DNA of 64,000 bases from Eledone cirrhosa (taxonomy: Eukaryota), in the NCBI GenBank assembly GCA_964016885.1, contig CAXHJY010001328.1, forward strand, positions 80,787-144,786, read 5' to 3'. The stretch's first letter is position 1. The number at the start of each line of letters is the position of its first letter. Positions 14,116 to 42,683 of this stretch are shown in pieces. Below the pieces are notes generated by a model that did not search any database, was not told the origin of the DNA, and worked only from the letters and a program-made list of their open reading frames with translations. Position numbers and translations under genes: made by a program.

Positions 14116-17100
14116 GGAAATGTCTTCATTCTTCTTACGACGATTTTTTTAAATGTCAGTAAGGGAAGATAACCAATTAGCACAAGCCAGAGAATTTATT
14201 TTTGCAGCACTCTTCCTGTGAGAAAATCCATTCGGAGGTTGGAAATTTCACGACATACCACAGAACAGAAACCACCTGCATTCATTCTCTGGAACACACT
14301 TTCTTTCCTGCTGTCATGTGATTGCACACCTGTGAACTATATTTTGTACATTTGAACTTTGAGCTCTTCTCTTACTTTATTACATTGTATCTTTGGGTGA
14401 TGGATAGATAGATGTCCAGCCGTTCTCTGGCCAAGAGCGGTTGGCTACCTTGACATCTATCATTGATTTTTGCAAACATTCTTTTGTCGTAATTTTCATG
14501 CCTGTTACAACATTCTCGCCAACTTGCTACATATTTCATTCGATTTTTATATTCTAAAATTCTGGCGTGAGGTTATGTAGCAGTTGCCTCCCTTGTGACT
14601 CACAACCCCAATAGATTAACAACATCTAGACGGGAAGTAGAACCCTTTCTGTAACTTCCGGTCAGAACCCTATAAAACTAACAACTTTAAGTTCTCACTC
14701 TCTCATTTGCCCTTCCGGCGCCTGGCCTTCGCCAGGCGTCTTCTGCCAGCCTGCGTTTGCCTGGCAATCAAAACGGTAACTACTAACTTTGCTCCATTCT
14801 TTCGTTTATTCATTGACATGTCAACTATACTGTTAAATTGTTGATTAAATATTATACACACAAACCATGTCTCCTTGTTACATTCATACAACCCAGTATC
14901 TCCGCTATAAAGCTATCGATGACCAAATTGAAGTTGAAATGTCAAAGCTAACGACTGGTATTATAGCTGAAAAACTACGAGAACTATGGATCAGAGATAT
15001 CTCAAAAGAAGAAAACAAATCAAGAAAGGTATGGCAGCAGAAGCAATTATTTCTCGACGAATATGCTGCAAATTACGGTAAAGACTCGGGAACCCTGAGA
15101 AAAAGCATTAAAAGTGGACAATCTCACCAACACAACATACGCCAGAACACGTGCCAACACAAACACTCACCTTACCTTGAATCAAAGAAGAACTGCGGTA
15201 ATAACTCTTCGTTTTTTCTACAAAAACACCCTATCGCACACAACATGAACAAAAAGCACAAACACGATAGATATTCCTTTGACCAGACCATGAGAAGTAG
15301 TAAAACCAGGAGATCATTCTCAAGATCTCAACAGAGACTACCCACAAGGAATGTGGAAACAAAACGTAGAATAACCAGATCACTCTCAAGATCTCAACAG
15401 AGATTACCCACAAGAAATGGAAAAATAATATACATAATACCAAAAATAGGACAAAATACATAACGAAACCAAATATAATATCACGACCAAAAGTTCATCA
15501 AGCGAACACCAACAGGAATATAAATCCTGAACAGAGAAAAATCCATTTTTTAACGTCAGGACAACAAAAACTGGAAAAAGAAAAACTCCAGAAGGAAACA
15601 TACCCAAAACAACTGTACCCGTAGATCCTAAAATAATTAATTTATCCAAAAGAGATCTTGACAATGATGAAATGCAAATTCTGTCAAAAGGACTGAAATT
15701 CACACCGACTCCTACAGTCAACCACCAAGAACTGAAGGAGGATACCCAAGAATTCTGTCGAAAATTACGTCTTGTAGAATTCTTCGCTGATAAAAGTAAT
15801 GAGAGTGATGAATCACTAGTAAAGAATAAATCAAATTTCACTCCCCCAAAAGGAAGAAATATCTATCTCGACCAATACATTGATATCCTGTTTAAATTTC
15901 CTCTTAGACGTAATACTAATGTTAGACCAAACATTAACAAATCAGAAATGTCTGCACTTAAACGTATACAAAATGATAAAACAATAATAATTAAACAAGC
16001 AGATAAAGGGGGTGCAGTTGTTATAATGGATGCTGAATACTACAAGGATTTGGTTGAGGAACAACTGAAAGACACAACATTCTATCATGAAATACCGTCA
16101 AATATAGACCACAACATCATGAAGAAGATCAACAACCTGGCTTCAAAATACCACAACTCACTTACTGATAAGGAAAGAGACTACATCACTAATTTTGAGC
16201 CAAAACCCAGCAACCTGTATGGCCTACCGAAAGTTCATAAGTCAAAAGAAATACAACTGGCAGTAAGAGAACAAAACAGTGAGTACATTAAATTACTACA
16301 CCCAAAAGACTTAAAACTTAGACCTATTATAGCTGGTCCAACATGCCCACCCACCGTCTAAGCAATTTTGTTGACATTATTTTGAAACCACTATGTATTC
16401 ACATAGCCAGTTTCATCCGGGATGATATCGACTTCCTGTCCCATCTTCCCAAAACCACGGAAACGAATTCACTTCTACTTAGTTTTGATGTGGTAAGCCT
16501 TTACACCAACATTACACATGATTTAGGAATAAAGGCGGTTAAATACTGGGTGGAAAAACATAGAGAAGTGATTCCCATCAGATTCACAGCGCCATTTATA
16601 TTAGACGCAGTTAAACTTATTCTGGAAAACAACACGAAGTTTTCTCCCGTTTACGCGAACTCTGTAATGGGATACTTAGAACAACAACTCTACCAAGAAA
16701 TAGAGGAAAAATATAGTACTGACTTTAGAAAGTACATTGAAAAATCTTGGAAGAGATACCTTGACTACTGTTTCATCATCTGGACAGAATCTCTAGATAC
16801 TCTGGATGAGTTCAATATCCTCCTGAATAACCTACACCCATCTCTCCAATTCACAAAAGAGATGAGTAGGACCAAATTACCATTCCTAGATATAATGATA
16901 ATCAAAAACGACACCACCATTACCACGGATATATATTATAAACACACAGACACCCATCAATATCTGAATTTTAAGTCGTGCCATCCACCTCATACAAAAC
17001 GCAACATCCCATACTGCCTAGCCAGAAGAATTTGTACCATTGTAGAAGATACGAATACCATGTACAAACGCCTAACAGAACTAAGAGAATTTTTGCTCAA

Positions 17101-17194
17101 ACAAAAATACCCATCTCTACTTATAGAAAATGGCATACAGTGGGCTTTAAAAATACCTATACAACAACTTAGGACAACCCAAGGAAGAAGAAAC

Positions 17195-19325
17195 TGTAGC
17201 AAGAGTTGCCTCCCTTGTCATGACAATCACATCACCGCTCTCTAGACAGGAAGTAGCTGGAGTTACTTCCCGTTGGAGTGATAGAACCCTTTTTGTCACT
17301 TCCGGCCGGACCCTATAAAAGGAACAGGTTAGGACGATCTCTCCCTCTCGCCTCCTGAATCCCAAAGTGTTAGCAACACCTGTGACCTTGTCATGAAATG
17401 ATTCCTCTCTCATTTGCCTTTTCGGCCAGGCGTCTTCGGCCAGCCGCGTTCGCCTGGCAACCAAACGGTAACTAATAACTTTGCTTCATTCTTTCATCTA
17501 TTCATTGACATGTCAACTATACTGTTCTATATAACCACAAATTGTTGATTAAATATTATACACACAAACCACGTCTCTCTTGTTATATTCATACACACCA
17601 GTAAATTGCTATAAGTGGTGACCCCGAAAAAAAGAAAAAAATAGCAGAATCTGGTGTTGTGTGAGTAACATTACGAATACGCAGCAAATTGTATTGACAA
17701 ACTAGGAAAATACGCAGACACAGAAATGAACACACGCACATGTGAAATTCTCGTTCAGGCAGACTCTTTTTCTCTTACAAACGTGTCGTACATCAACTAA
17801 CTCTCGCATTTCACTGTATATATATATATAAGAAATTTGTTTTTTTTTACACATTTCAACATGAACATTTATTTTCGATGAATCTCAACTATTGCCTTTT
17901 TTCATCGTTTTCTTCATCGTTCAAGTTTTTTTCATCGTTCACAAAAAGAATTGAACTCGCCATATTTGTTATACTAAGTGAAGCCTTTCTTTCTTTTTCA
18001 TCATATTGTCACTTTCACACACACATTTTTTCAAAATGGCTGCCAACGACCTGTTGCACTATCATTTTCGCGCCATTTTCTCGCGCAATAGAAATATTTT
18101 TTTTTCAACTTAACCTTGTTTTGGCACGTGTAGGCAGCACAATTCTCGACTCACGGAGATAACCACACGCCACAGATAACGTTTCTCGCCAAGGATTCTC
18201 CAGCCTTAAGCTATATTCTCCTATTTGCCGGTTTAAAAATTTACCACGTAAATTTGCCGTTGAAAACTACGCATTTATTCAGAATGCTTATTTCTTTGGT
18301 CGCTGGCCTCTTGACTCTTCCAGGTCAACGCATTCTCAACATCGACCATCAACTTCGGCTGTTATTTCTAGCACTTTTCGCAACTCATTTTTTCTTGAAA
18401 ATTTTTTTACTGTGAATTTAAACATCGAATACGCTCACTCCGCGAGACAACTACATCAACAGCAAGACAGCTTCATCAACAACCAAAAACCAGCAGAACA
18501 AGCCAGAGAATTTATTTCTGCAGCACTCTTCCTGTGAGAAATTCCCTTCGGAAGTTGGAAATTTCACGTTATACCGCAGACCAGAAACCACCTGCATTCA
18601 TTCTCTGGAACACATTCTTTCCTGCTGTCATGTGATTGCACACATGTGAACTGTATTTTGAACATTTGATCTCTTCTCTTACTTTGATTACATTGTATCT
18701 TTGAGTGATGGATAGATAGTTCTCTGGCCAAGAGCGGTTGGCTACCTTGATATCTATCATTGATTTTTGCATGCATATATTTTACGGTTTTCCTTTTATT
18801 GCAAATATTATTTTTTCTCATAATTTTCATGCCTCTTACATGCTCGCCATCTTACTCCATGCATGTTTCATTCGATTTTTATGTTTTAAAAATCTGGCGG
18901 AGGTAATGTAGCAAGAGTTGCCTCCCTTGTCATGACAATCACACCACCGCTCTCTAGACAGGAAGTAGCTGGAGTTACTTACCGTTGGGGTGATAGAACC
19001 CTTTTTGTCACTTCCGGCCGGACCCTATAAAAGGAACAGGTTAGGACGATCCCTCCCTCTCGCCTCCTGAATCCCAAAGTGTTAACAACACCTGCGACCT
19101 TGTCATGAGATGATTCCTCTCTCATTTGCCTTTTCGGCCAGGCGTCTTCGGCCAGCCGCGTTCGCCTGGCAACCAAACGGTAACTAATAACTTTGCTTCA
19201 TTCTTTCATCTATTCATTGGCATGGCAACTATACTGTTCTGTATAACCACAAATTGTTGATTAAATATTATACACACAAACCACGTCTCTCTTGTTATAT
19301 TCATATACACCAGTAAATTGCTATA
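17195..19325 (+). mobile_element. Non-autonomous Ty3/Gypsy LTR element B
   Basis: 419-bp LTRs at 17195-17613 and 18907-19325 (about 11 differences by eye), TSD AAAC, 12-nt tRNA-Trp PBS at 17616-17627. The 3' internal region is homologous to that of element A. Confidence 0.95.
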
Positions 19326-20299: not shown

Positions 20300-20338
20300 T
20301 GAACCTGAAGATTGCGAAAGCATGAAAGTACTTGTTCA
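20300..20338 (+). ncRNA. Minimal type I hammerhead ribozyme at the PLE 3' pLTR
   Basis: tgaac-CTGAAGA-t-tgc gaaa gca-t-GAAA-gtac-TT-gttca; palindromic stem III AGTACT. Confidence 0.85.
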
Positions 20339-22485: not shown

Positions 22486-22829
22486 GGAGGCACATGGCTT
22501 AGTGGTTAGAGCATTGGCCTTGCAATCGAAAGGTTGTAAGTTCAATTCTCAGACGGGTGATGTGTTGCTTCCTTGAGCAGGTCACTTTATTTCACATTGC
22601 TCCAGTTTACTCAGCTGTAGAAATGAGATGATAGGGACTGGGGTCCATATCATTCCACTGCAAAGTGGTCGTGGAGGTGCCACGGCAAAAAAGCACCCAG
22701 CACTCACTGTAAATGAGGTTGGTGTTAGGAAGGGCATCCAGCTGTAGAAATCAAGCCAGAATCAGTTCCCGTCCCACTCTTGCAAGCAGGGAAAAAGCGG
22801 ACGTAAAATGAAATGATGATAATGATGAT
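22486..22829 (+). mobile_element. tRNA-derived SINE with CORE-like middle and RTE tail
   Basis: A/B boxes, ccttgagcaggtcactttatttcacattgctccagtttactcagctgtagaaatgag, RTE 3' UTR, (GAT)n. Confidence 0.9.
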
Positions 22830-22839
22830 ATATATATAC

Positions 22840-22872
<33 letters not shown>

Positions 22873-22885
22873 CATATATATATAC

Positions 22886-22932
<47 letters not shown>

Positions 22933-22933
22933 C

Positions 22934-22964
<31 letters not shown>

Positions 22965-23221
22965 CATATATATACATATACACATATATATATACATATA
23001 TATATATATACATATATATACATATACATATATATATATATATATACATATATATACATATACATATATATACATATATATATACATATATATACATATA
23101 TATATATACATATATATATATACATATATATAAACTAATATGTATGTGATGAAACACAGATACCAACACATCTGTATATATATTATACATATATATACAT
23201 ATACATATATATACATATACA

Positions 23222-23506
23222 TATTGTTATACTTTGGGAGGGTCATGTTGCCAATAAGAAACACACGCACCAGTTGCTTTCACTTCAATTTATTATAATA
23301 AATTTATAAATTTATAAATTTATAAATTTCTGGTTGGTTGGTTGGTTCCACAACCAGATAGTTGTTTATATATTGTCATAGTTCTTTCGTCACACACTCT
23401 GTGACCTCTTCAGTGACTGGGGATTCTGAGGTCACAGAGTGTGTGACGAAAGAACTATGACAATATATAAACAACTATCTGGTTGTGGAACCAACCAACC
23501 AACCAG
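23222..23506. mobile_element. Solo pLTR of the PLE at 60.3-62.0 kb, folded back
   Basis: 23222-23426 matches 60338-60545; 23428-23506 is an inverted partial copy. HHR at 23375-23417 on the minus strand. Confidence 0.9.
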
Positions 23507-24632
23507 GAGGATGCAGAACAATTATATGAAAGACGTAAAATAAAATTTTAAAAATTAAAAATTAAAAATTAAAAATTAACTTACTTACTACCTAGGTACT
23601 ATGACATAACTTATGTATTTGCTAGCATTAGTGTACATCTGTACGCATATGCTGGTAAATATACTAATTCTCTATATTTATCTCCAAATTATTTATTTGT
23701 CGAGCAAACTTGCCAAATCCACTACTAATTCATTGTAGTGGTAGTAGGCTTTTGTCATTATACCATCCCACTCCTTCTGACTAGCCTCAGTGTCACGTGA
23801 TTGATTCTTTAGAATCTGCCATTTGACCAGAGACAGTGAACTTTTTCAGTGCTATGGAATTCAGTCCCCGCTAGCTGTTCCATCCACCGAATTATTATTT
23901 TTATATGAGTCCCTAGTGTCCACGCATTGCCTGGAGTCTTAGCTGAGAATAGACTCCCCGATGACGTAATGAATTCTCGATGGTTACATTGCGTAACTCT
24001 CTTTATCCCATTACAGAAACTAATTAGTTGGAGTGAAAATTTTAGTAAGTAAGTTAATTTTTAATTTTTAATTTTTCTTATTTTACGTCTTTCATATAAT
24101 TGTTCTGCATCCTCCTGCATTGAACCACCTAGGTACTATGACATAACTTATGTATTTGCTAGCATTAGTGTACATCTGTACGCATATGTTGGTAAATATA
24201 CTAATTCTCTATAATTATCTCCAAATTATTTATTTGTTGAGCAAACGTGCCAAATCCACTACTAATTCATTGTAGTGGTAGTAGGCTTTTGTCATTATAC
24301 CATCCCACTCCTTCTGACTAGCCTCAGTGTCACGTGATTGATTCTTTAGAATCTGCCATTTGACCAGAGACAGTGAACTTTTTCAGTGCTATGGAATTCA
24401 GTCCCCGCTAGCTGTTCCATCCACCGAATTATTATTTTTATATGAGTCCCTAGTGTTCGCGCATTGCCTGGAGACTTAGCTGAGAATAGACTCCCTGATG
24501 ACGTAATGAATTCTCGATGGTTACATTGCGGAACTATCTTTATCCCATTACAGAAACTAATTAGTTGGAGTGAAAATTTTAGTAAGTTAATTTTTAATTT
24601 TTAAAATGTTCTTATTTTACGTATTTCATATA
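23504..24632 (+). mobile_element. Retrozyme-like element: ~2 tandem 537-bp non-coding units with HHR, plus a 5' inverted piece
   Basis: cctaggtactatg at 23591 and 24128. HHRs at 23953-24034 (core CCGATGA, mutated) and 24490-24571. 23504-23590 is an inverted copy of ~24043-24117. Confidence 0.85.
24490..24571 (+). ncRNA. Type I hammerhead ribozyme with extended stem II
   Basis: actcc-CTGATGA-c-gtaatg...cattac-a-GAAA-ctaattag-TT-ggagt; palindromic stem III. Confidence 0.88.
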
Positions 24633-24668
24633 TATACATATATATATATACATATATAGATATACATA

Positions 24669-24736
<68 letters not shown>

Positions 24737-24757
24737 CATATATATATATGTATATAT

Positions 24758-26948
24758 AAACAGGAGGTATTCAAGATTGCGAGGCAGCGTGTCAGAGATA
24801 GTTGTGATGTCATTGGAGAGAAGTGTATCCGGAATGATAAAGGTGAGCTTGCCCTCACAAGTGCTGAGAAGAAAGATGCATGGAAGAGTCATTATGATAC
24901 ATTACTAAATGAGGAGAATGCATGGGAAGAAGAGACCCTACCCCAAGTAGACCCTATAGAGGGACCAGCAGTACAAGTCAGCAGCAGCGTAGTAAGTAAG
25001 GCAATCAAAGATATGAAGATGGGGAAGGCAACCGGTCCATCGGGTATAGCTGCCGAGATGCTGAAGGCATCTGGGTCTGTAGGTCACACTATAACCACAC
25101 GTATCGTTAACCAGGTAATACTAGAAGGGGCCATACCAAAAGATTGGTGCAGTAGCATCATTGTCAACTGCTACAAAGGCAAAGGCGATGCACTAGATAG
25201 AGGAAACTATAGAGGTATAAAGTTGATGGACCAGGTCATGAAAGTAACAGAAAGAGTTATAGCACAGCTGATTAGGGACCGGGTGAATATAGACGAGATG
25301 CAATTTGGGTTTGTACCAGGAAAAATCACCACTGATGCCCTCTTCCTTGTGAGGCAATTACAGGAAAAGTACCTAGCTAAAAGTAAGCCACTCTACTTGG
25401 CATTTGTCGACCTTGAGAAAGCCTTTGACAGAGTTCCACGTGCTGTAATCTGGTGGGCTCTTAGAAAACTAGGAGTAGATGAATGGCTTGTGAAAGCGGT
25501 ACAAGCCATGTATAGGGGAGCAGTCAGCAAAGTTAGGATTAGCAATGAGTATAGCGAGGAATTTAGCGTACAGGTTGGGGTCCACCAGGGCTCTGTTCTT
25601 AGCCCTCTCCTGTTCATCATAGTCCTGCAGGCAATAACGGAGGAGTTTAAGACCGGATGCCCATGGGAACTCCTGTATGCTGATGACCTCGCACTCATAG
25701 CTGAATCTATGGTAGAACGAGAGAATAAATTCCAAACCTGGAAGCAGGGACTAGAGAGAAAGGGTCTCAAAGTCAACATGACCAAGACTAAGGTCCTTGT
25801 AAGTAGACGAGAAAACAGAACCCAGACCCCCTCGGGGAAATGGCCTTGCTCAGTATGTAGGAAAGGTGTAGGTAGGAACTCCATTCTCTGCCCCAAATGC
25901 AAACAATGGGTACACAAGAGATGTAGCGGGATCTCAGGAAGCTTAATTAACAATGTAGGATTCACATGCAGCAGCTGTGCTGAAATAGCAAGCAGTAAGC
26001 AGCCACAGGAAACAATTACCACCAATCTCTGGGAGGGCCCTGTAGAAACAGTAGACAGCTTCTGCTACCTAGGTGACCGAATTAGCAACGGAGGTGGGTG
26101 TTCAGAAAGTACAATAACTAGGGTAAGAACGGGATGGAAGAAGTTTAGGGAACTACTACCACTGCTAGCTGCAAAAGGCTTCTCCCTCAGAATGAAAGAC
26201 AGACTGTATGATGCATGTATCCGAACAGCGATGTTGCATGGTAGTGAGACCTGGGCGCTGAAGGTGGAAGACTTACGTAGATTAGAGAGAAACGAAGCCT
26301 GCATGTTCCGATGGATGTGTAACAGTAATATACGTGAACGACAAAGCATAAATGAATTGAGAGAGAGACTGAGCATAAGAGGAATCAAATGCTGTGTGCA
26401 GGAGAGGCGGTTGCGCTGGTATGGACATGTGATGCGTATGAAGGATGACAGCTGCATAAAAAGGTGCAGAGCACTAGAAGTTGATGGAAACCGCGGAGTG
26501 GGGAGACCCAAGATGACCTGGGATGAGGTGATAAAAGCCGACCTTACCCAATTACACCTCTTAAAGACAATGACACATGACCGTGACTTCTGGCGTCATG
26601 CAGTAATACAGAGTACCCGACCTCCCATGGGTACATGCTGAAGCATATAAACAATATGCCCCCACACCCCCCACCGCAAGGTGGTCGTGGAGGTGCCACG
26701 GCAAAAAAGCACCCAGCCCACACTGTACAGTGGACGTGTAGGCGCCACGAAAAAGCACCCAGCACTCACTATAAATGAGGTTGGTGTTAGTAAGGGCATC
26801 CAGCTGTAGAAATCAAGCCAGATCAGTTCCTGTATGAGCAAGGCATGGTCAGCCGACCAGACACTGCACACAACAGGACAACCCGTCTAACCCATGCTAG
26901 CGTGGAAGAACGGACGTAAAACGGTGATGATGATGATGATGATGATGA
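24758..26948 (+). mobile_element. 5'-truncated RTE LINE with an uninterrupted RT reading frame (24758-26641)
   Basis: The 542-aa ORF extends open upstream to the (TA)n junction. It has all RT motifs and no APE domain; 3' UTR and (GAT)n tail follow. Confidence 0.96.
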
Positions 26949-27272: not shown

Positions 27273-27700
27273 AACAATTAAGTTAAAGTGTACATCTACA
27301 TATGTATACGGAAGTATTAGTATGCATATAAATACACATATGTATACATATGTACATGTACCGAGCTTTTCACTAGACACTTTGCAGTGAGTGTCCAGCT
27401 AGTCTGTATGTAAACACACAGACGAACCGGGTTTTAAAGTCATACGGGTTTTCAAGGAAACACACTTCCTCTATTCTCCAGAGAGCCAGACAGGAATATT
27501 GGACTAGTTTCGATGTTATTACATCTCATCAGCAATATATACCTATCTTCTGGCTTCTCCGGAGAATTGTAAAAGCACATATCGTTATATGCTTTTTCTA
27601 TGAAAATCAGTAGTGGGCAGACTAATTTGCATAGAACGTGAGTCATTGTACGCGCCGGTTCAGCGGAAACGATAAAAACAAATAACGAATATATACATAG
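27270..27700 (-). mobile_element. Short non-coding HHR-bearing insert (retrozyme monomer or solo pLTR)
   Basis: ~430-bp island in (TA)n with a canonical HHR and long flanking self-complementarity. Confidence 0.7.
27496..27538 (-). ncRNA. Canonical minimal type I hammerhead ribozyme
   Basis: atattg-CTGATGA-gatgt aata acatc-GAAA-ctag-TC-caatat. Stem I is extended by attctcc..agccaga / tctggct..ggagaat. Confidence 0.92.
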
Positions 27701-29356: not shown

Positions 29357-29615
29357 TACACATTATTATTATAAATATATGGATATTGAGGCGCTCACAT
29401 AAACACGCCCACACACACTTACATTTAGATGCGGAAGTAAAAGAGGTAAGGGAATATAGTAATTAAAGGAAAGTGTCAATCTCGACATACTTATAAAAGT
29501 GTATCCATAAATTAGAAATAAAAAAAATTTTTTATGGAAGGAAAAACTCAAAAAAAGAAGACAAAAAAGACAAAAAAAGGGGAAATTTTGCTAATTATTC
29601 CAATATCTGATTTGG

Positions 29616-31493
29616 ATAAGACTTATATGTCCCTCCAAATCAGATATTGGAATAATTATCAAAAAATGTTTAGATAGAGTCATCCCACAAATAAGAAAAC
29701 ATGTTAATTTACCACTCTGGGAAAACACTTCCCAGGTAATTAACTGGTTTAATAATATTAGATGTAAATCTTCTGCTTCATTTCTACAATTTGATATAGA
29801 TAATTACTATTCTTCTATATCACCTATACTCCTGAACAAAGCTTTGATATTTGCTAAAAATAGATCTAACTTAAGTTTGGATGACATTAATATTATTACA
29901 CATGCTAGACTAACACTTATTGAATTTCAGAATGAATACTGGACCAGAAACACATATAGTAATCTATTTGATATTAGTATGGGCTCAAGCGATTCTGCCC
30001 AAATTACTGATCTTGTGGGCCTCTTTCTCCTTTTTAACATAAATGCTTCCTTTCCCCACCTTAAAGGTGGTTTATATCGTGATGACTGTCTTCTTCTTTC
30101 CAACAACCTTAGCCTCTCAGAAATAGAAAAAAACAAAAAGCTTATTAGAACTTTCCTTAAAGACTATTATAGTCTAGATATTACTTTTGAAAACACAAGT
30201 AAAGTAGTTAATTTCCTAGATATAACTTTAGACTTGGCTATGGGTATCTACCAACCTTACCATAAACCCAACCAAAACTTACACTACATACACTCACAAT
30301 CTAATCACCCTAAATCTATCCTTAAAAACCTTGCATATAATATATCACTTAGAATTTCTAACCTTTCGTCTAACCAAGATGTATTTGATAAAAATGCGAG
30401 CTTCTATAACGAAGCTCTAGCTAGAAGTGGCCACAAAAATAGATTGGAATATATACCTTCTACCAATAACACTATAAACATACAACCTAATATTACCAAC
30501 AAACACCAAATGAAACGTACACACCTAAATGCCACTCACACTATACCCCAAAATACCAACATAAAACTAAATTTCTCTAACTCCTCTAATATAAAGTATA
30601 GTAACTCTCAAAAAACTACTCATAATACAACTCTAATAAATGTTAATAATAAAACACCTAATAAACAAGCTAAAACACCTAAATCAATAAATCTAACTAA
30701 AAACGTGCGTCGAGAGGTCATTAACAATAATCCTCCTAGTAAACATCAGGATGCATCCTATAAAAACAATAAACAACATAGAAACCGTAATAGACGAATC
30801 ACTTGGTATAATGCTCCATTTAATTTACAAATTAAGGATAATATACCTAAAAAAATTTTTAATATCCTAGAGAAAAACTTCCCGCCAAACCACAAATACC
30901 ATCAAATCTTAAATAGATCAACAGTTAAATACTCATACTCAACAACCAAAAACATAAAACAAAATATAAGTGCCTATAATGCATATAAGTGTAAAAAAAC
31001 CATAAGTATACCACCAGTACATCAAACTAGCCATAATATCTCCTCAAATACAGAATTAACGAAAGGTTGTAACTGTAGAAACAAGGCAAACTGCCCATTA
31101 AAAGGAAATTGTCTTGTTAACAACATAGTATATAAATGTAAAGTTAAAACTAAGAATTCTATTTGCTCATATATAGGAGCTACTTCTAACAATTTTAAGG
31201 TAAGATTTAATACCCACAAACATAGTTTTAAAAATGCCGCACTGGCTAATACAACATCTCTAGCAGAAAAAATTAATAGTTATAGAAATAAGAATATAGA
31301 ATATGATATGACCTGGAGTGTGCTCAAAAGAGCCACCCCTTATCAAAATAATAGAAATGAATGTAGATTGTGTTCCCAAGAACTATTTGAAATAATGAAA
31401 TCTAAGGATATCCTATTAAATAAGCGACAGGAATTAATAATATCGTGTAATCATAAACTGAGAAAAACATTTAAATATTATAAACCTAATTAA
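29616..31493 (+). CDS. PLE reverse transcriptase + GIY-YIG endonuclease (N-terminally truncated, no internal stops)
   Basis: FDIDNYYSSI, FDISMGSSDSAQ, GLYRDD, CNCRNKANCPLKGNCL, NIVYKC..YIGAT..FKVRFNTH. Confidence 0.85.
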   Translation: MRLICPSKSDIGIIIKKCLDRVIPQIRKHVNLPLWENTSQVINWFNNIRCKSSASFLQFDIDNYYSSISPILLNKALIFAKNRSNLSLDDINIITHARLTLIEFQNEYWTRNTYSNLFDISMGSSDSAQITDLVGLFLLFNINASFPHLKGGLYRDDCLLLSNNLSLSEIEKNKKLIRTFLKDYYSLDITFENTSKVVNFLDITLDLAMGIYQPYHKPNQNLHYIHSQSNHPKSILKNLAYNISLRISNLSSNQDVFDKNASFYNEALARSGHKNRLEYIPSTNNTINIQPNITNKHQMKRTHLNATHTIPQNTNIKLNFSNSSNIKYSNSQKTTHNTTLINVNNKTPNKQAKTPKSINLTKNVRREVINNNPPSKHQDASYKNNKQHRNRNRRITWYNAPFNLQIKDNIPKKIFNILEKNFPPNHKYHQILNRSTVKYSYSTTKNIKQNISAYNAYKCKKTISIPPVHQTSHNISSNTELTKGCNCRNKANCPLKGNCLVNNIVYKCKVKTKNSICSYIGATSNNFKVRFNTHKHSFKNAALANTTSLAEKINSYRNKNIEYDMTWSVLKRATPYQNNRNECRLCSQELFEIMKSKDILLNKRQELIISCNHKLRKTFKYYKPN

Positions 31494-36090: not shown

Positions 36091-36638
36091 TATAAAGAAT
36101 TAGTATATCTCCCGACATATGTATACAGATGCATACCTATGCTAGCAAATATATATGTTTTGTCTTAGTAACTTTGTGGTTCTATGCAAGGGGATGCAGA
36201 ACAATTATATGATATACTAATTCTTTATAATTATCTCCAAATTATTTGTTGAGCAAAATTTGCCGAAATTACTACTGTGATTAATAGTAGTGGCTAGGCT
36301 CTGTCTTAATAGCACCCCCACTCCTGGCTGATTAACCTCAGTGTCACGTGATTGATTCTTTTGAATTTGCCACTTGACCAAGTAGGCAGTGAATTTTTCA
36401 ATGTCTTGGAATCTAGCCCCGCTCGCATTTTTTCATCCACTGAATTATTTTTATATAAGTTCCCACTGTCCTCGCATTGCCTGGAAGCTTAGCTGAGAAT
36501 AGACTCCCTGATGACGTAAGGCTTCTCTATGGATACACTCCGTAACCATATTTATCCCCTTACAGAAACTAATTAGTTGGAGTGAAATGTTAGTAAGTAA
36601 GTCAATTTTCATAACTTTCTTATTTACGTCTTTCATAT
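36091..36638 (+). mobile_element. Divergent copy of the 537-bp retrozyme-like unit, permuted and with a 5' inversion
   Basis: 36213-36638 is colinear with the unit; 36091-36212 is inverted. HHR at 36503-36583. Confidence 0.85.
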
Positions 36639-38199: not shown

Positions 38200-38536
38200 A
38201 TATATAAGATCAAAAGATGGTTAAAAGAGTTCCATGTATTTTATTATGCGCATTTCAAAAACAAATATCATCATGCAATAATATTTGTGTTTTCATCAGA
38301 TAAAATAGGAAGACATGATATGAAGGTTAAAAACACTTGTGGATAGTGCAGTTTTAAATTAACATTTCATGTTAATTTAAAACTGCACTATCCACAAGTG
38401 TTTTTTAACCTTCATGTGATGTCTTCCTATTTTATCTGATGAAAACACAAATATTATTGCATGATGATATTTGTTTTTGAAATGCGCATAATAAAATACA
38501 TGGAACTCTTTTAACCAACTTTTGATCTTATATATT
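38200..38536. mobile_element. Head-to-head palindromic pLTR pair of the PLE at 45-48 kb
   Basis: Arms ~38200-38365 and ~38369-38536 match 48165-48322. HHRs at 38237-38307 (-) and 38428-38498 (+): tattttat-CTGATGA-stem II-GAAA-tgcgca-TA-ataaaata. Confidence 0.9.
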
Positions 38537-39739: not shown

Positions 39740-42683
39740 TGGAAGATGATTCTATTAGTAGAAATGGGGGAGGGAGTTGTGTGTGTGTGTATATATGGGT
39801 GTTATGTGTGTGTGTGCGAGTATGTTAAGATGGAGAGAATATATATTTTGTGTGTGTGTGTATATGTGTGTAGGAAAGTGGTTCTATTAGTAGAAATGGG
39901 GGAGGGAGTTGTGGGTGTGGGGGTTATGTGTGTGTATGGGTGTTATGTGTGTGGGAGTATGGTTAGCATGTTAAGATGAAGAGAATATATATATATATAT
40001 ATATTGTGTGTGTGTGTAGGAAAATGATTCCTTTAGTAGGAATATTTTTGAATGAACATATTTTCCTTACTTATTCGTATTTGTTATGTTGTATTGTCAG
40101 TGCAAACGTATATTAAGATTTATTTAGTTCGGGTTTTTATTTTCTAAAGTAGAAGGTGTTATGTGTGTGTGTGTATGTCATATTATGGTGTTGGCATAAT
40201 GTATATTAAACCATATTTAATGCTGGTCTATATTTTTGAATAAACATATTTTCCTTATTTATTCGTATTTGTTCTGTTGTATTGTTAGCGCAAAGGTAAA
40301 ATGGGAAGACTTGGAATTTGGGTGTCTTATTACTTGCGCAAATGTCTAGATGTGCACTTAGTGGCATCTGTCTCGTGGTTGGATCTCGTAATTATTGGCG
40401 ATGAACTGTCATTCTGTTTCTGAGTGTGAGTTTAGTTTGTCCTATATAATCTTCATTGCATCCTTTACATTTAATGGCATAAATTAGATTTTTTGATGAG
40501 CAAGTGAAGTGATTTTTTACAGTAAAATTTTGTCCTGATTTAAATGTATACGTATTGCCTTCAATGAGGTGAGTGCAGGTTCCACAATTAGAGCGACCAC
40601 ATTTTTTGATACTTGGTTGTGGGTTTGTGGTAGGTAATTTGGCATTGGTGAGTAATGTTTTCAGTGATTTTGGTTGTCTTTTTGCTTTTGATTATTTTGT
40701 GTGTTTCAAGGACTTTTTTCATTCTTGGTTTTGTTTTAGTAGTGGGATGTTCTTGTGAATAGTGTTGTAAGCTTCCGCATTTCTTGGGTTGTGTGTTGAG
40801 ATATATGATAGAATATTGACGTACCTTGAATTTGTTTCTGTTTCCGTAATTCATCAATGCCTATTGCTTTAGCCCTTTCTATTCCATTATTTATTAGTAA
40901 TAGTGGGTACTCTCTCTCGAGTAGAATTTCCTTTAATTCTTGAAGTCTTTTATTTCGCGTTTCATAATTGGAGACAATTGTGCAAATTCTTCTTGCTAGG
41001 TTAAAAGGAATGTTCGTCTTCATGTGCTTTGGATGGTTGGAGGTGAATAGCAGATATTGTTTGGAATCTGTTGGTTTGTAGTGTATGTCAGTTTCGATAT
41101 TTGTGTCTTTTTTTAAGATTAAGATGTCCAGAAATGGGAGTTGATCTTGGCTGTATTCCATTGTGAATTGGATGTGGTTATTGATGCCGTTTATTAAGTT
41201 TTTGAAATCCTTCAGTTGGTCGAGTGTGTGGGACCAAAGAATAAGGCAATCATCCAAGTAGCGTTTCCAATTCTCTGATAAATATTTGTGGAAGTTCAAT
41301 CCGTATTTTGATTTGGACTGTTCATATATCTGGACTTCTAAGTATGCCATGACTAAGTTGGCATAAGTTGGAGCGGCTTTTGTACCCATCGCAGTCCCCG
41401 ATATTTGCTTGTAAGTATTGCCATCGAAATCAAAAAAGTTGTTCTGTAAGATGAATTTTAATCCCTCGGTGATGAAGCTTTTTTCTATTCTGTCAGGTAT
41501 CTCATTGGGATATTTCTCTAGCCAGAATCCTATTGCTTCTAGTCCGTATTGGTGTGGGATTGTTGTGTAGAGATTCACTACATCGAAAGACACAATAATA
41601 GTGTCGTTGTTGACATGTTTGGGGAGGTGGTTTAAGAGGTCCAGATCGTCTCTTACAAGGCTTGGTATGTGTTTCAGAATTGGTTTCAGTAGTATGTCTA
41701 TAAAGTTGCTCAGTCTGTGTGTTTCACATTGTGGGCCCGCTACAATTGGTTTTAATTTAAGGTCTGTGTGGTATTGTGTGTTCACGCAGGCTGAGGTGGA
41801 TTGTTTACAGGCATCGTTGATTATTTTACACTTGTGGATCTTCGGAAGTCCGTAAAGGTTGCTGGTTTTGTATTCAAAATTTGTTAAATAATCGCGTTCC
41901 TTTTTAGTTAGGTCTTCCTGGTATCGATAAATCAGTGTGTTTAATCTAGTCATTATTTTTGATTGCTGGTATTTTTTTACTCTTTCATAGTAATTAGTAT
42001 TTTGTAAGAGAGAGAACATAGAATTTTTTATATTTTTCAGCCTCCATAATGACAACAGTACTTCCCTTGTCCGCTTCCTTAATTATAATGTCCGTATTGT
42101 TTTTTAGTTCATGGATAATCTCCCATTCCCTTCGACTCGTGTTGGGTTTGGGTTTAGGTTGCGGTAGTTCATGCATGGGAAGGTAGCTATGTGGTCACAA
42201 AATTTGTCCAGAACTCTGTTTCTACTTTTTGTTGGGTTGTAGCTGCTTTTATTCCGTACAATTGATTCGTCGTTATTCTCCTTGTCAAAGAATTCCTCTG
42301 TGAGACGTAATTTTCTACAGCAGTGTGAGATATCGTCATTTATCTCATTGGGGTTAGAGTATTGTGGTGTTGGTGTGAATTTCAGTCCTTTAGAGAGAAT
42401 TTTTACTTGTTGGGCTGAGAGGTTTGTATTTGAAAGGTTAATTATTTTCGGTTTTTCAAAATCGGTTTGTGCCACCGGGTGTCGTGAGTCCTGTAGCCTT
42501 GGTCTAAAAAATGATTTTTCTGGAATGTTTTTTCAATGGTATTATTGTATCTATATATATACACACGCACAAAATATATATTCTCCTCCATCTTAACATA
42601 CTCGCACACACACACATAACACCCATATATACACACACACACACAACTCCCTCTCCCATTTCTTCTAATAGAATCATCTTCCA

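Follow-up and report, generated by a model that had tools for sequence, protein, structure and literature searches.

Animal non-LTR retrozymes are described, in the accessible text of two reports (PMC7229834; bioRxiv 10.64898/2026.07.22.740005), as non-coding tandem units that each carry a type I hammerhead motif and co-occur with PLEs. PLEs were put forward as strong candidates for moving retrozymes (Cervera and de la Pena 2020, PMC7229834), and on the grounds of pLTR homology and co-occurrence it was argued that animal retrozymes are non-autonomous PLE sequences (Li, Clavereau and Pollet, bioRxiv 10.64898/2026.07.22.740005). Arguments about which enzyme mobilises animal retrozymes have thus far drawn on co-occurrence, common ribozymes and homology of pLTRs. 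An inverted copy and a one-sided tail are features of PLEs (Craig et al. 2021, PMC8557442), and in vitro a PLE protein nicks both strands and extends them, with synthesis beginning at two internal RNA positions that delimit the tail; this two-start-site signature is termed unique to PLEs in the available part of that study (Frangieh et al. 2024, PMC11167929). EN+ PLEs with a Neptune/Nematis-type linker are reported with tails of 30-40 nt (PMC8557442, PMC11167929). Non-autonomous Chlamys PLEs, for example MRC1, are non-coding, occur in many head-to-tail copies and are moved by PLEs; in the portion of the source consulted, they generally share 3' sequence with an autonomous family and are without canonical hammerheads (PMC8557442).

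We analysed a 64,000-nt stretch of Eledone cirrhosa DNA (the window), in which an end of a PLE, family PLE61, is fused to a hammerhead repeat with a period of 537 nt, RZ537. In order, the locus comprises (TA)n, an antisense and then a sense PLE arm, CAG, an antisense retrozyme arm followed by two sense units, and (TA)n again; both flanks, in which a target-site duplication would lie, are degenerate (TA)n. Its features, and the second PLE61 copy of the window, are as follows.

22828..23224, no strand: left target, degenerate (TA)n/(TACA) microsatellite (TRF).
23221..23426, minus strand: PLE61 arm to the short (untailed) 3' end, PLE positions 753-960; 97.6% identical to 60338-60545, matches 62030-61826.
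23375..23417, minus strand: predicted minimal type I hammerhead motif of the PLE pLTR, CUGAAGA core, CUA triplet (sequence reading; features as given in the accessible part of PMC4209133).
23428..23506, plus strand: opposite PLE61 arm, positions 771-849, ending before its own 3' end and tail; 100% identical to 61844-61922.
23504..23506, no strand: CAG microhomology at the PLE-retrozyme junction, fitting both sides (sequence comparison).
23504..23590, minus strand: RZ537 inverted arm, unit positions 457-532, without the outer ~100 nt and tailed end; reverse complement of 24043-24117 at 85%, with one 12-nt indel.
23587..24123, plus strand: RZ537 unit 1, hammerhead core U4 changed to C (sequence).
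24124..24632, plus strand: RZ537 unit 2, stopping at the short end (unit position ~513); 96.4% identical to unit 1.
24490..24570, plus strand: predicted type I hammerhead motif of RZ537, stem I ACUCC/GGAGU, palindromic stem III, GUU triplet (motif scan and sequence).
24628..24762, no strand: right target, (TA)n-type microsatellite (TRF).
60280..62030, plus strand: second PLE61 copy, a stand-alone head-to-head fragment with only a GIY-YIG remnant; tailed left arm 60280-61073, short right arm 61074-62030.

A first-pass annotation had described the pLTR as joined to the inverted end of the array through the CAG at 23504-23506, with no (TA)n between them, and the PLE as turning back on itself. Sequence comparison confirmed both observations, the sense piece 23428-23506 following the antisense piece 23221-23426 after a single untemplated T. 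The annotation had further assigned the pLTR to a GIY-YIG-encoding PLE at 60-62 kb; the family is indeed the same, but that copy is a fragment of two arms, 5'-truncated, which lacks an RT and whose GIY-YIG frame is broken. The 33-nt junction sequence occurs once in the 3.0-Gb assembly, with 0 control matches. Since a shared stretch of at least 3 nt is expected at 6.8% of random breakpoints between PLE and retrozyme sequences, the CAG overlap is a weak sign of microhomology use, and microhomology is common to both deletion repair and RT jumps. The inverted RZ537 arm matches neither sense unit exactly and is therefore not a fold-back copy.

RT and GIY-YIG frames of the PLE61 family were found at two further loci (L074 and L075), the observed copies being interrupted, with profile matches to RVT_1 at E=1.8e-5 (below the curated cut-off) and to GIY-YIG at E=4.4e-5. 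The order is RT, CX4CxxC linker and C-terminal GIY-YIG, and the family, which targets (TA)n, has a pLTR hammerhead motif, inverted 5'-truncated arms and a one-sided tail. By its motif alone the linker is of the Neptune/Nematis type as defined in the accessible text of PMC8557442, and in all the other listed features, too, PLE61 resembles EN+ PLEs (PMC8557442, PMC11167929). A 19-nt motif from the PLE61 3' end has 28,967 exact matches.

RZ537 arrays contain up to about 6 units (52 natural units are each 520-579 nt long) and are non-coding, the longest stop-free frame in a dimer being 83 codons; a 22-nt core piece has 9,169 exact matches. A motif scan predicts a type I hammerhead with palindromic stem III, a kind described in the available part of PMC4209133 as needing dimers; its stem II region is 50 nt long, GAAA is preceded by one additional A, and the triplet is GUU. 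Across 55 units the hammerhead core columns are 99.1% conserved, versus 95.6% elsewhere. An Rfam scan gave no match for either hammerhead of the locus among the matches listed (150 of 202), which were nearly all microRNA models on simple repeats. Judged by its sequence, RZ537 belongs with the non-LTR retrozymes as a further family, and its insertions have the PLE signature described below. It shares with the described animal retrozymes the non-coding tandem units, the hammerhead motif in each unit and the co-occurrence with PLEs, but it differs, as far as the accessible text of PMC7229834 and bioRxiv 10.64898/2026.07.22.740005 goes, in these three hammerhead details, in lacking pLTR homology to the fused PLE, and in its head-to-head (TA)n insertions, which are tailed on one side. 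An older copy in the window (36098-36630) is 80% identical and has an intact hammerhead core and an inverted arm. Three fused or broken copies (L061:1900, L174:2698, L280:~1790) stop near unit positions 170-185, away from the standard ends.

No significant similarity was found between RZ537 and PLE61 (blastn versus L074/L075; best E=0.18 over 13 nt), and we rejected RZ537 as a non-autonomous derivative of PLE61, the two having no pLTR or 3' sequence in common. We also looked for a PLE that combines a shorter stem II with the hammerhead loop of RZ537; of 45 matches, 20 were fetched, 19 of these being copies of RZ537 subfamilies, and no fetched match was located in a PLE end. RZ537 is non-coding and multicopy like the Chlamys PLEs but, unlike what is generally described for these in the consulted part of PMC8557442, it shares no 3' sequence with the PLEs tested and has a hammerhead motif.

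To describe insertions family-wide, loci were fetched around both families, and removal of duplicates and of blocks touching a locus edge left 173 RZ537 blocks, 144 of them with microsatellite on both sides. Two 3' ends recur, at unit positions of about 513 and about 95. Each lies a short distance downstream of the site where cleavage is predicted; the second adds a tail of about 120 nt, and older subfamilies, about 69-80% identical to the young consensus, retain the same two ends. Both ends could be typed in 73 of the 144 blocks, one end only in 63 and neither in 8. Among the typed two-arm blocks, 72/73 have one short and one tailed end, the remaining one (1/73) having two long ends. Head-to-head units of PLE61 likewise pair one short end with one end bearing a 58-nt tail (35/36), so that the single-family units pooled over RZ537 and PLE61 give short plus tailed in 107/109. 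Both tails exceed the 30-40 nt given for EN+ PLEs in the available text of PMC8557442 and PMC11167929, and the near-strict pairing of short and tailed ends, as counted here, is a further difference from what is described there.

Because RZ537 insertions show the two-start-site tail signature called unique to PLEs, RZ537 is probably moved by a PLE RT-endonuclease that targets (TA)n. The proposal in the first-pass annotation that PLE machinery mobilises the repeat therefore gains from the family-wide anatomy (72/73), which does not name a specific PLE family. RZ537 adds a mechanistic footprint tied to in vitro PLE biochemistry, in that start sites are fixed at two places downstream of the ribozyme and each insertion has a single tailed end, and this footprint names two RNA sites accessible to an in vitro priming assay. 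The PLE signature of RZ537 is thus a testable addition to an existing hypothesis. The main text of PMC7229834 has 0 occurrences of the word "inverted"; that of bioRxiv 10.64898/2026.07.22.740005 has 0 occurrences of "tail", and "inverted" appears there solely within a reference. In the accessible parts of the non-subscription literature we found no description of one-sided tails with head-to-head anatomy in retrozyme insertions, or of PLE-retrozyme fusions.

The first-pass annotation went further and proposed that such a junction would identify the autonomous partner of the repeat. In a census of the sampled loci, with fusions classed by eye, 17 RZ537 blocks directly abut another repeat (16 from the block set plus L023; L029 and L297 were left out as uncertain), 9/17 of them joined to PLE ends of five families. 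PLE61 is the partner at the focal locus, L061 and L280; a sister family, 63% identical to PLE61 in protein, at L023; and a family whose GIY-YIG frame was read in L165, at L165 and L197. Two Hydra-type families (CxCX5C linker, also in the window) account for L183 and for L227 and L296, the family at the latter two being assigned by contiguity in the window. The other partners are SINE-like and other repeats and, at L055, another hammerhead element, while PLE61 itself is fused to the other hammerhead element at L086/L087. L183 has the same four-part layout as the focal locus, with an unrelated PLE family. Among 120 blocks sampled by genome position there were five PLE fusions from four families, PLE61 occurring once (L280). 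PLE61 lies just across the microsatellite from RZ537 at 5/316 ends, that is, 5/72 identified neighbours by script, or 7/74 with two added by eye. Its share of the fusions in these sampled loci, 3/17 versus 5-7 of 72-74 adjacent neighbours, is not an enrichment (p 0.18-0.66), and a two-family query gave no second locus with both families in the best 40 of 1,767 and the best 40 of 351 candidates. Hence PLE61-RZ537 fusions are in no excess over what adjacency predicts in this sample, and the junction does not name PLE61 as the helper. More generally, one chimeric junction in a (TA)n hotspot is not enough to identify an autonomous partner.

Breakage at (TA)n and repair through microhomology are familiar processes, and we consider two adjacent insertions followed by a deletion at the 3-nt microhomology the likeliest origin of the focal junction, though with only modest confidence. 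Each family would have inserted separately in (TA)n as an ordinary head-to-head unit: the PLE RT-endonuclease would nick both (TA)n strands and prime at two internal RNA sites, also on the retrozyme, which may travel as circular or multimeric RNA. A later microhomology-mediated deletion would have removed both tailed ends (about 170 nt from the PLE and about 100 nt from the retrozyme) together with the intervening (TA)n. The focal locus has two short ends and two inversion centres, each native to its own family: the stand-alone unit L091 restarts its PLE61 arm at the same position, and the retrozyme centre of the stand-alone L187 lies at almost the same place. The locus therefore corresponds to two units side by side, one of L091 type and one of L187 type, minus both tailed ends. 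Precursor layouts are present at the microsatellite-separated ends counted above; no undeleted allele was seen. Six fusions were typed at both ends, three being short plus tailed (L055, L227, L086) and three not (focal, L023, L197), which is the expectation for random pairing by deletion and differs from the 107/109 of the single-family units (Fisher p=0.0008); short and tailed ends are here putatively equated between families by their position relative to the hammerhead, which tempers this argument for deletion. A fold-back origin of both centres was rejected: there is no microhomology at them, and in PLE61 units the tailed arm is often the shorter one. What may count against the deletion is that fused PLE61-RZ537 pairs look age-matched, their nearest-neighbour identities differing by 0.2, 0.6 and 1.2 points versus 0.4-13.8 in adjacent or nearby pairs (p=0.024, n=3 vs 8; small numbers, from a locus sample enriched for copies like the focal ones). 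The frequency of fusions relative to adjacency (17 vs about 74) also counts against it, being demanding for deletion alone. Moreover, two other fusions fit RT template switching better than deletion: L055:3188-3590, where 198 nt of RZ537 lie at the centre of a short-plus-tailed element of another hammerhead family with a CTAAT overlap, and L280:1599-2360, where one full RZ537 turn plus about 20 nt is colinear with a tailed PLE61 3' end. No other locus is as good a candidate as L280 for a true template switch between PLE61 and the retrozyme, or for a template that was circular.

Template-switch chimeric retrocopies (U6-L1) join two RNA-derived sequences directly at a microhomology and are colinear, having one centre, and L1 twin priming gives inverted arms. 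The focal joint is likewise direct at microhomology but is tail-to-tail with two centres, L280 representing the colinear form. A single integration event with one RT jump, as the first-pass annotation had proposed, would require an RT primed on PLE61 RNA at a broken (TA)n end to fold back and jump to retrozyme RNA at the CAG, its product being joined to retrozyme cDNA primed from the other end. The 3-nt microhomology, the short 18-nt loop at the PLE centre, the youth of both pieces (nearest neighbours 97.9% and 98.1%), the apparent age match of fused partners and the RT jumps in the genome suggested by L055, L227 and L280 are all in keeping with such an event. However, it needs two extra steps, the PLE centre is without fold-back microhomology, and the locus keeps both native centres where one is expected and has two short ends, which breaks the pairing of short and tailed ends seen in 107/109. 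Nor is there recurrence specific to this partner, the junction being unique and PLE61 taking part in 3/17 fusions. We regard one jump at this junction as possible but the less probable account, and even if true it would mean that the RNAs met, not that PLE61 is a dedicated helper, because five PLE families are fused to RZ537. On a wider reading, which we consider rather doubtful, PLE RTs would prime both (TA)n break ends at two fixed sites on unrelated non-coding hammerhead circles and jump freely between PLE and retrozyme RNAs; the focal locus, L055, L227 and L280 would be single-event fossils of a promiscuous trans-mobilisation pool, with the tail signature as its genome-only marker.

Nested insertion of one element into the other is very improbable: insertions into RZ537 do occur (L042), but here neither element resumes beyond the other, which largely refutes it, and the junction is neither a (TA)n target nor a standard end of either family. 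There is a slight chance of an assembly or chimeric-read artefact, the focal contig (C1355) being one of the small, numbered, unplaced ones. No contig listed spans the junction, nor does any read among the pieces listed from four runs over 23430-24030, and a 1,851-nt flank query for the second haplotype found only the window itself at full length in the best 40 of 6,314 candidates. Against an artefact, both families stop at their exact biological ends on the outer sides of the locus, and the same fusion classes, the four-part layout included, lie on chromosome-scale contigs (L183, L280, L055, L197). The focal 33-nt junction is unique and a later deletion, which the first-pass annotation had named among the explanations that would undo its proposal, is the somewhat favoured origin, but fusions of its classes recur elsewhere. 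Two RAD-seq runs (X8, X9) show apparent joints between 23506 and positions in the array, but these lie at AATT words where many molecules end; they were read as library ligation products and not counted. Such joints are mistakable for natural PLE-retrozyme chimeras.

Other hammerhead and PLE elements lie in the same window. A 310-nt tandem array (57598-58893) has its own type I hammerhead motif (CGCG loop), is placed head-to-head in (TA)n and has two different ends about 30 nt apart, and appears to be a second retrozyme-like family. A small hammerhead element (57114-57316, L055, L086, L292) forms mostly short head-to-head units with a tail of ~85 nt, and no coding parent was seen for it at these places. 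Two more PLE RT frames (14849-17614 and 40736-42500) have 49% mutual identity and no blastp match to the PLE61 frame tested. Three PLE frames, at 29595-31493, 45388-47292 and 54577-55700, have a CxCX5C linker, which the accessible part of PMC8557442 gives as the Hydra-type motif. Furthermore, type I hammerhead motifs occur at 20305, 27480-27550, 38209-38526 and 48157-48314, their stem III loops being palindromic (GTAC, CTAG, TGCGCA) and the one at 27480-27550 matching Rfam HH9 below the gathering score.
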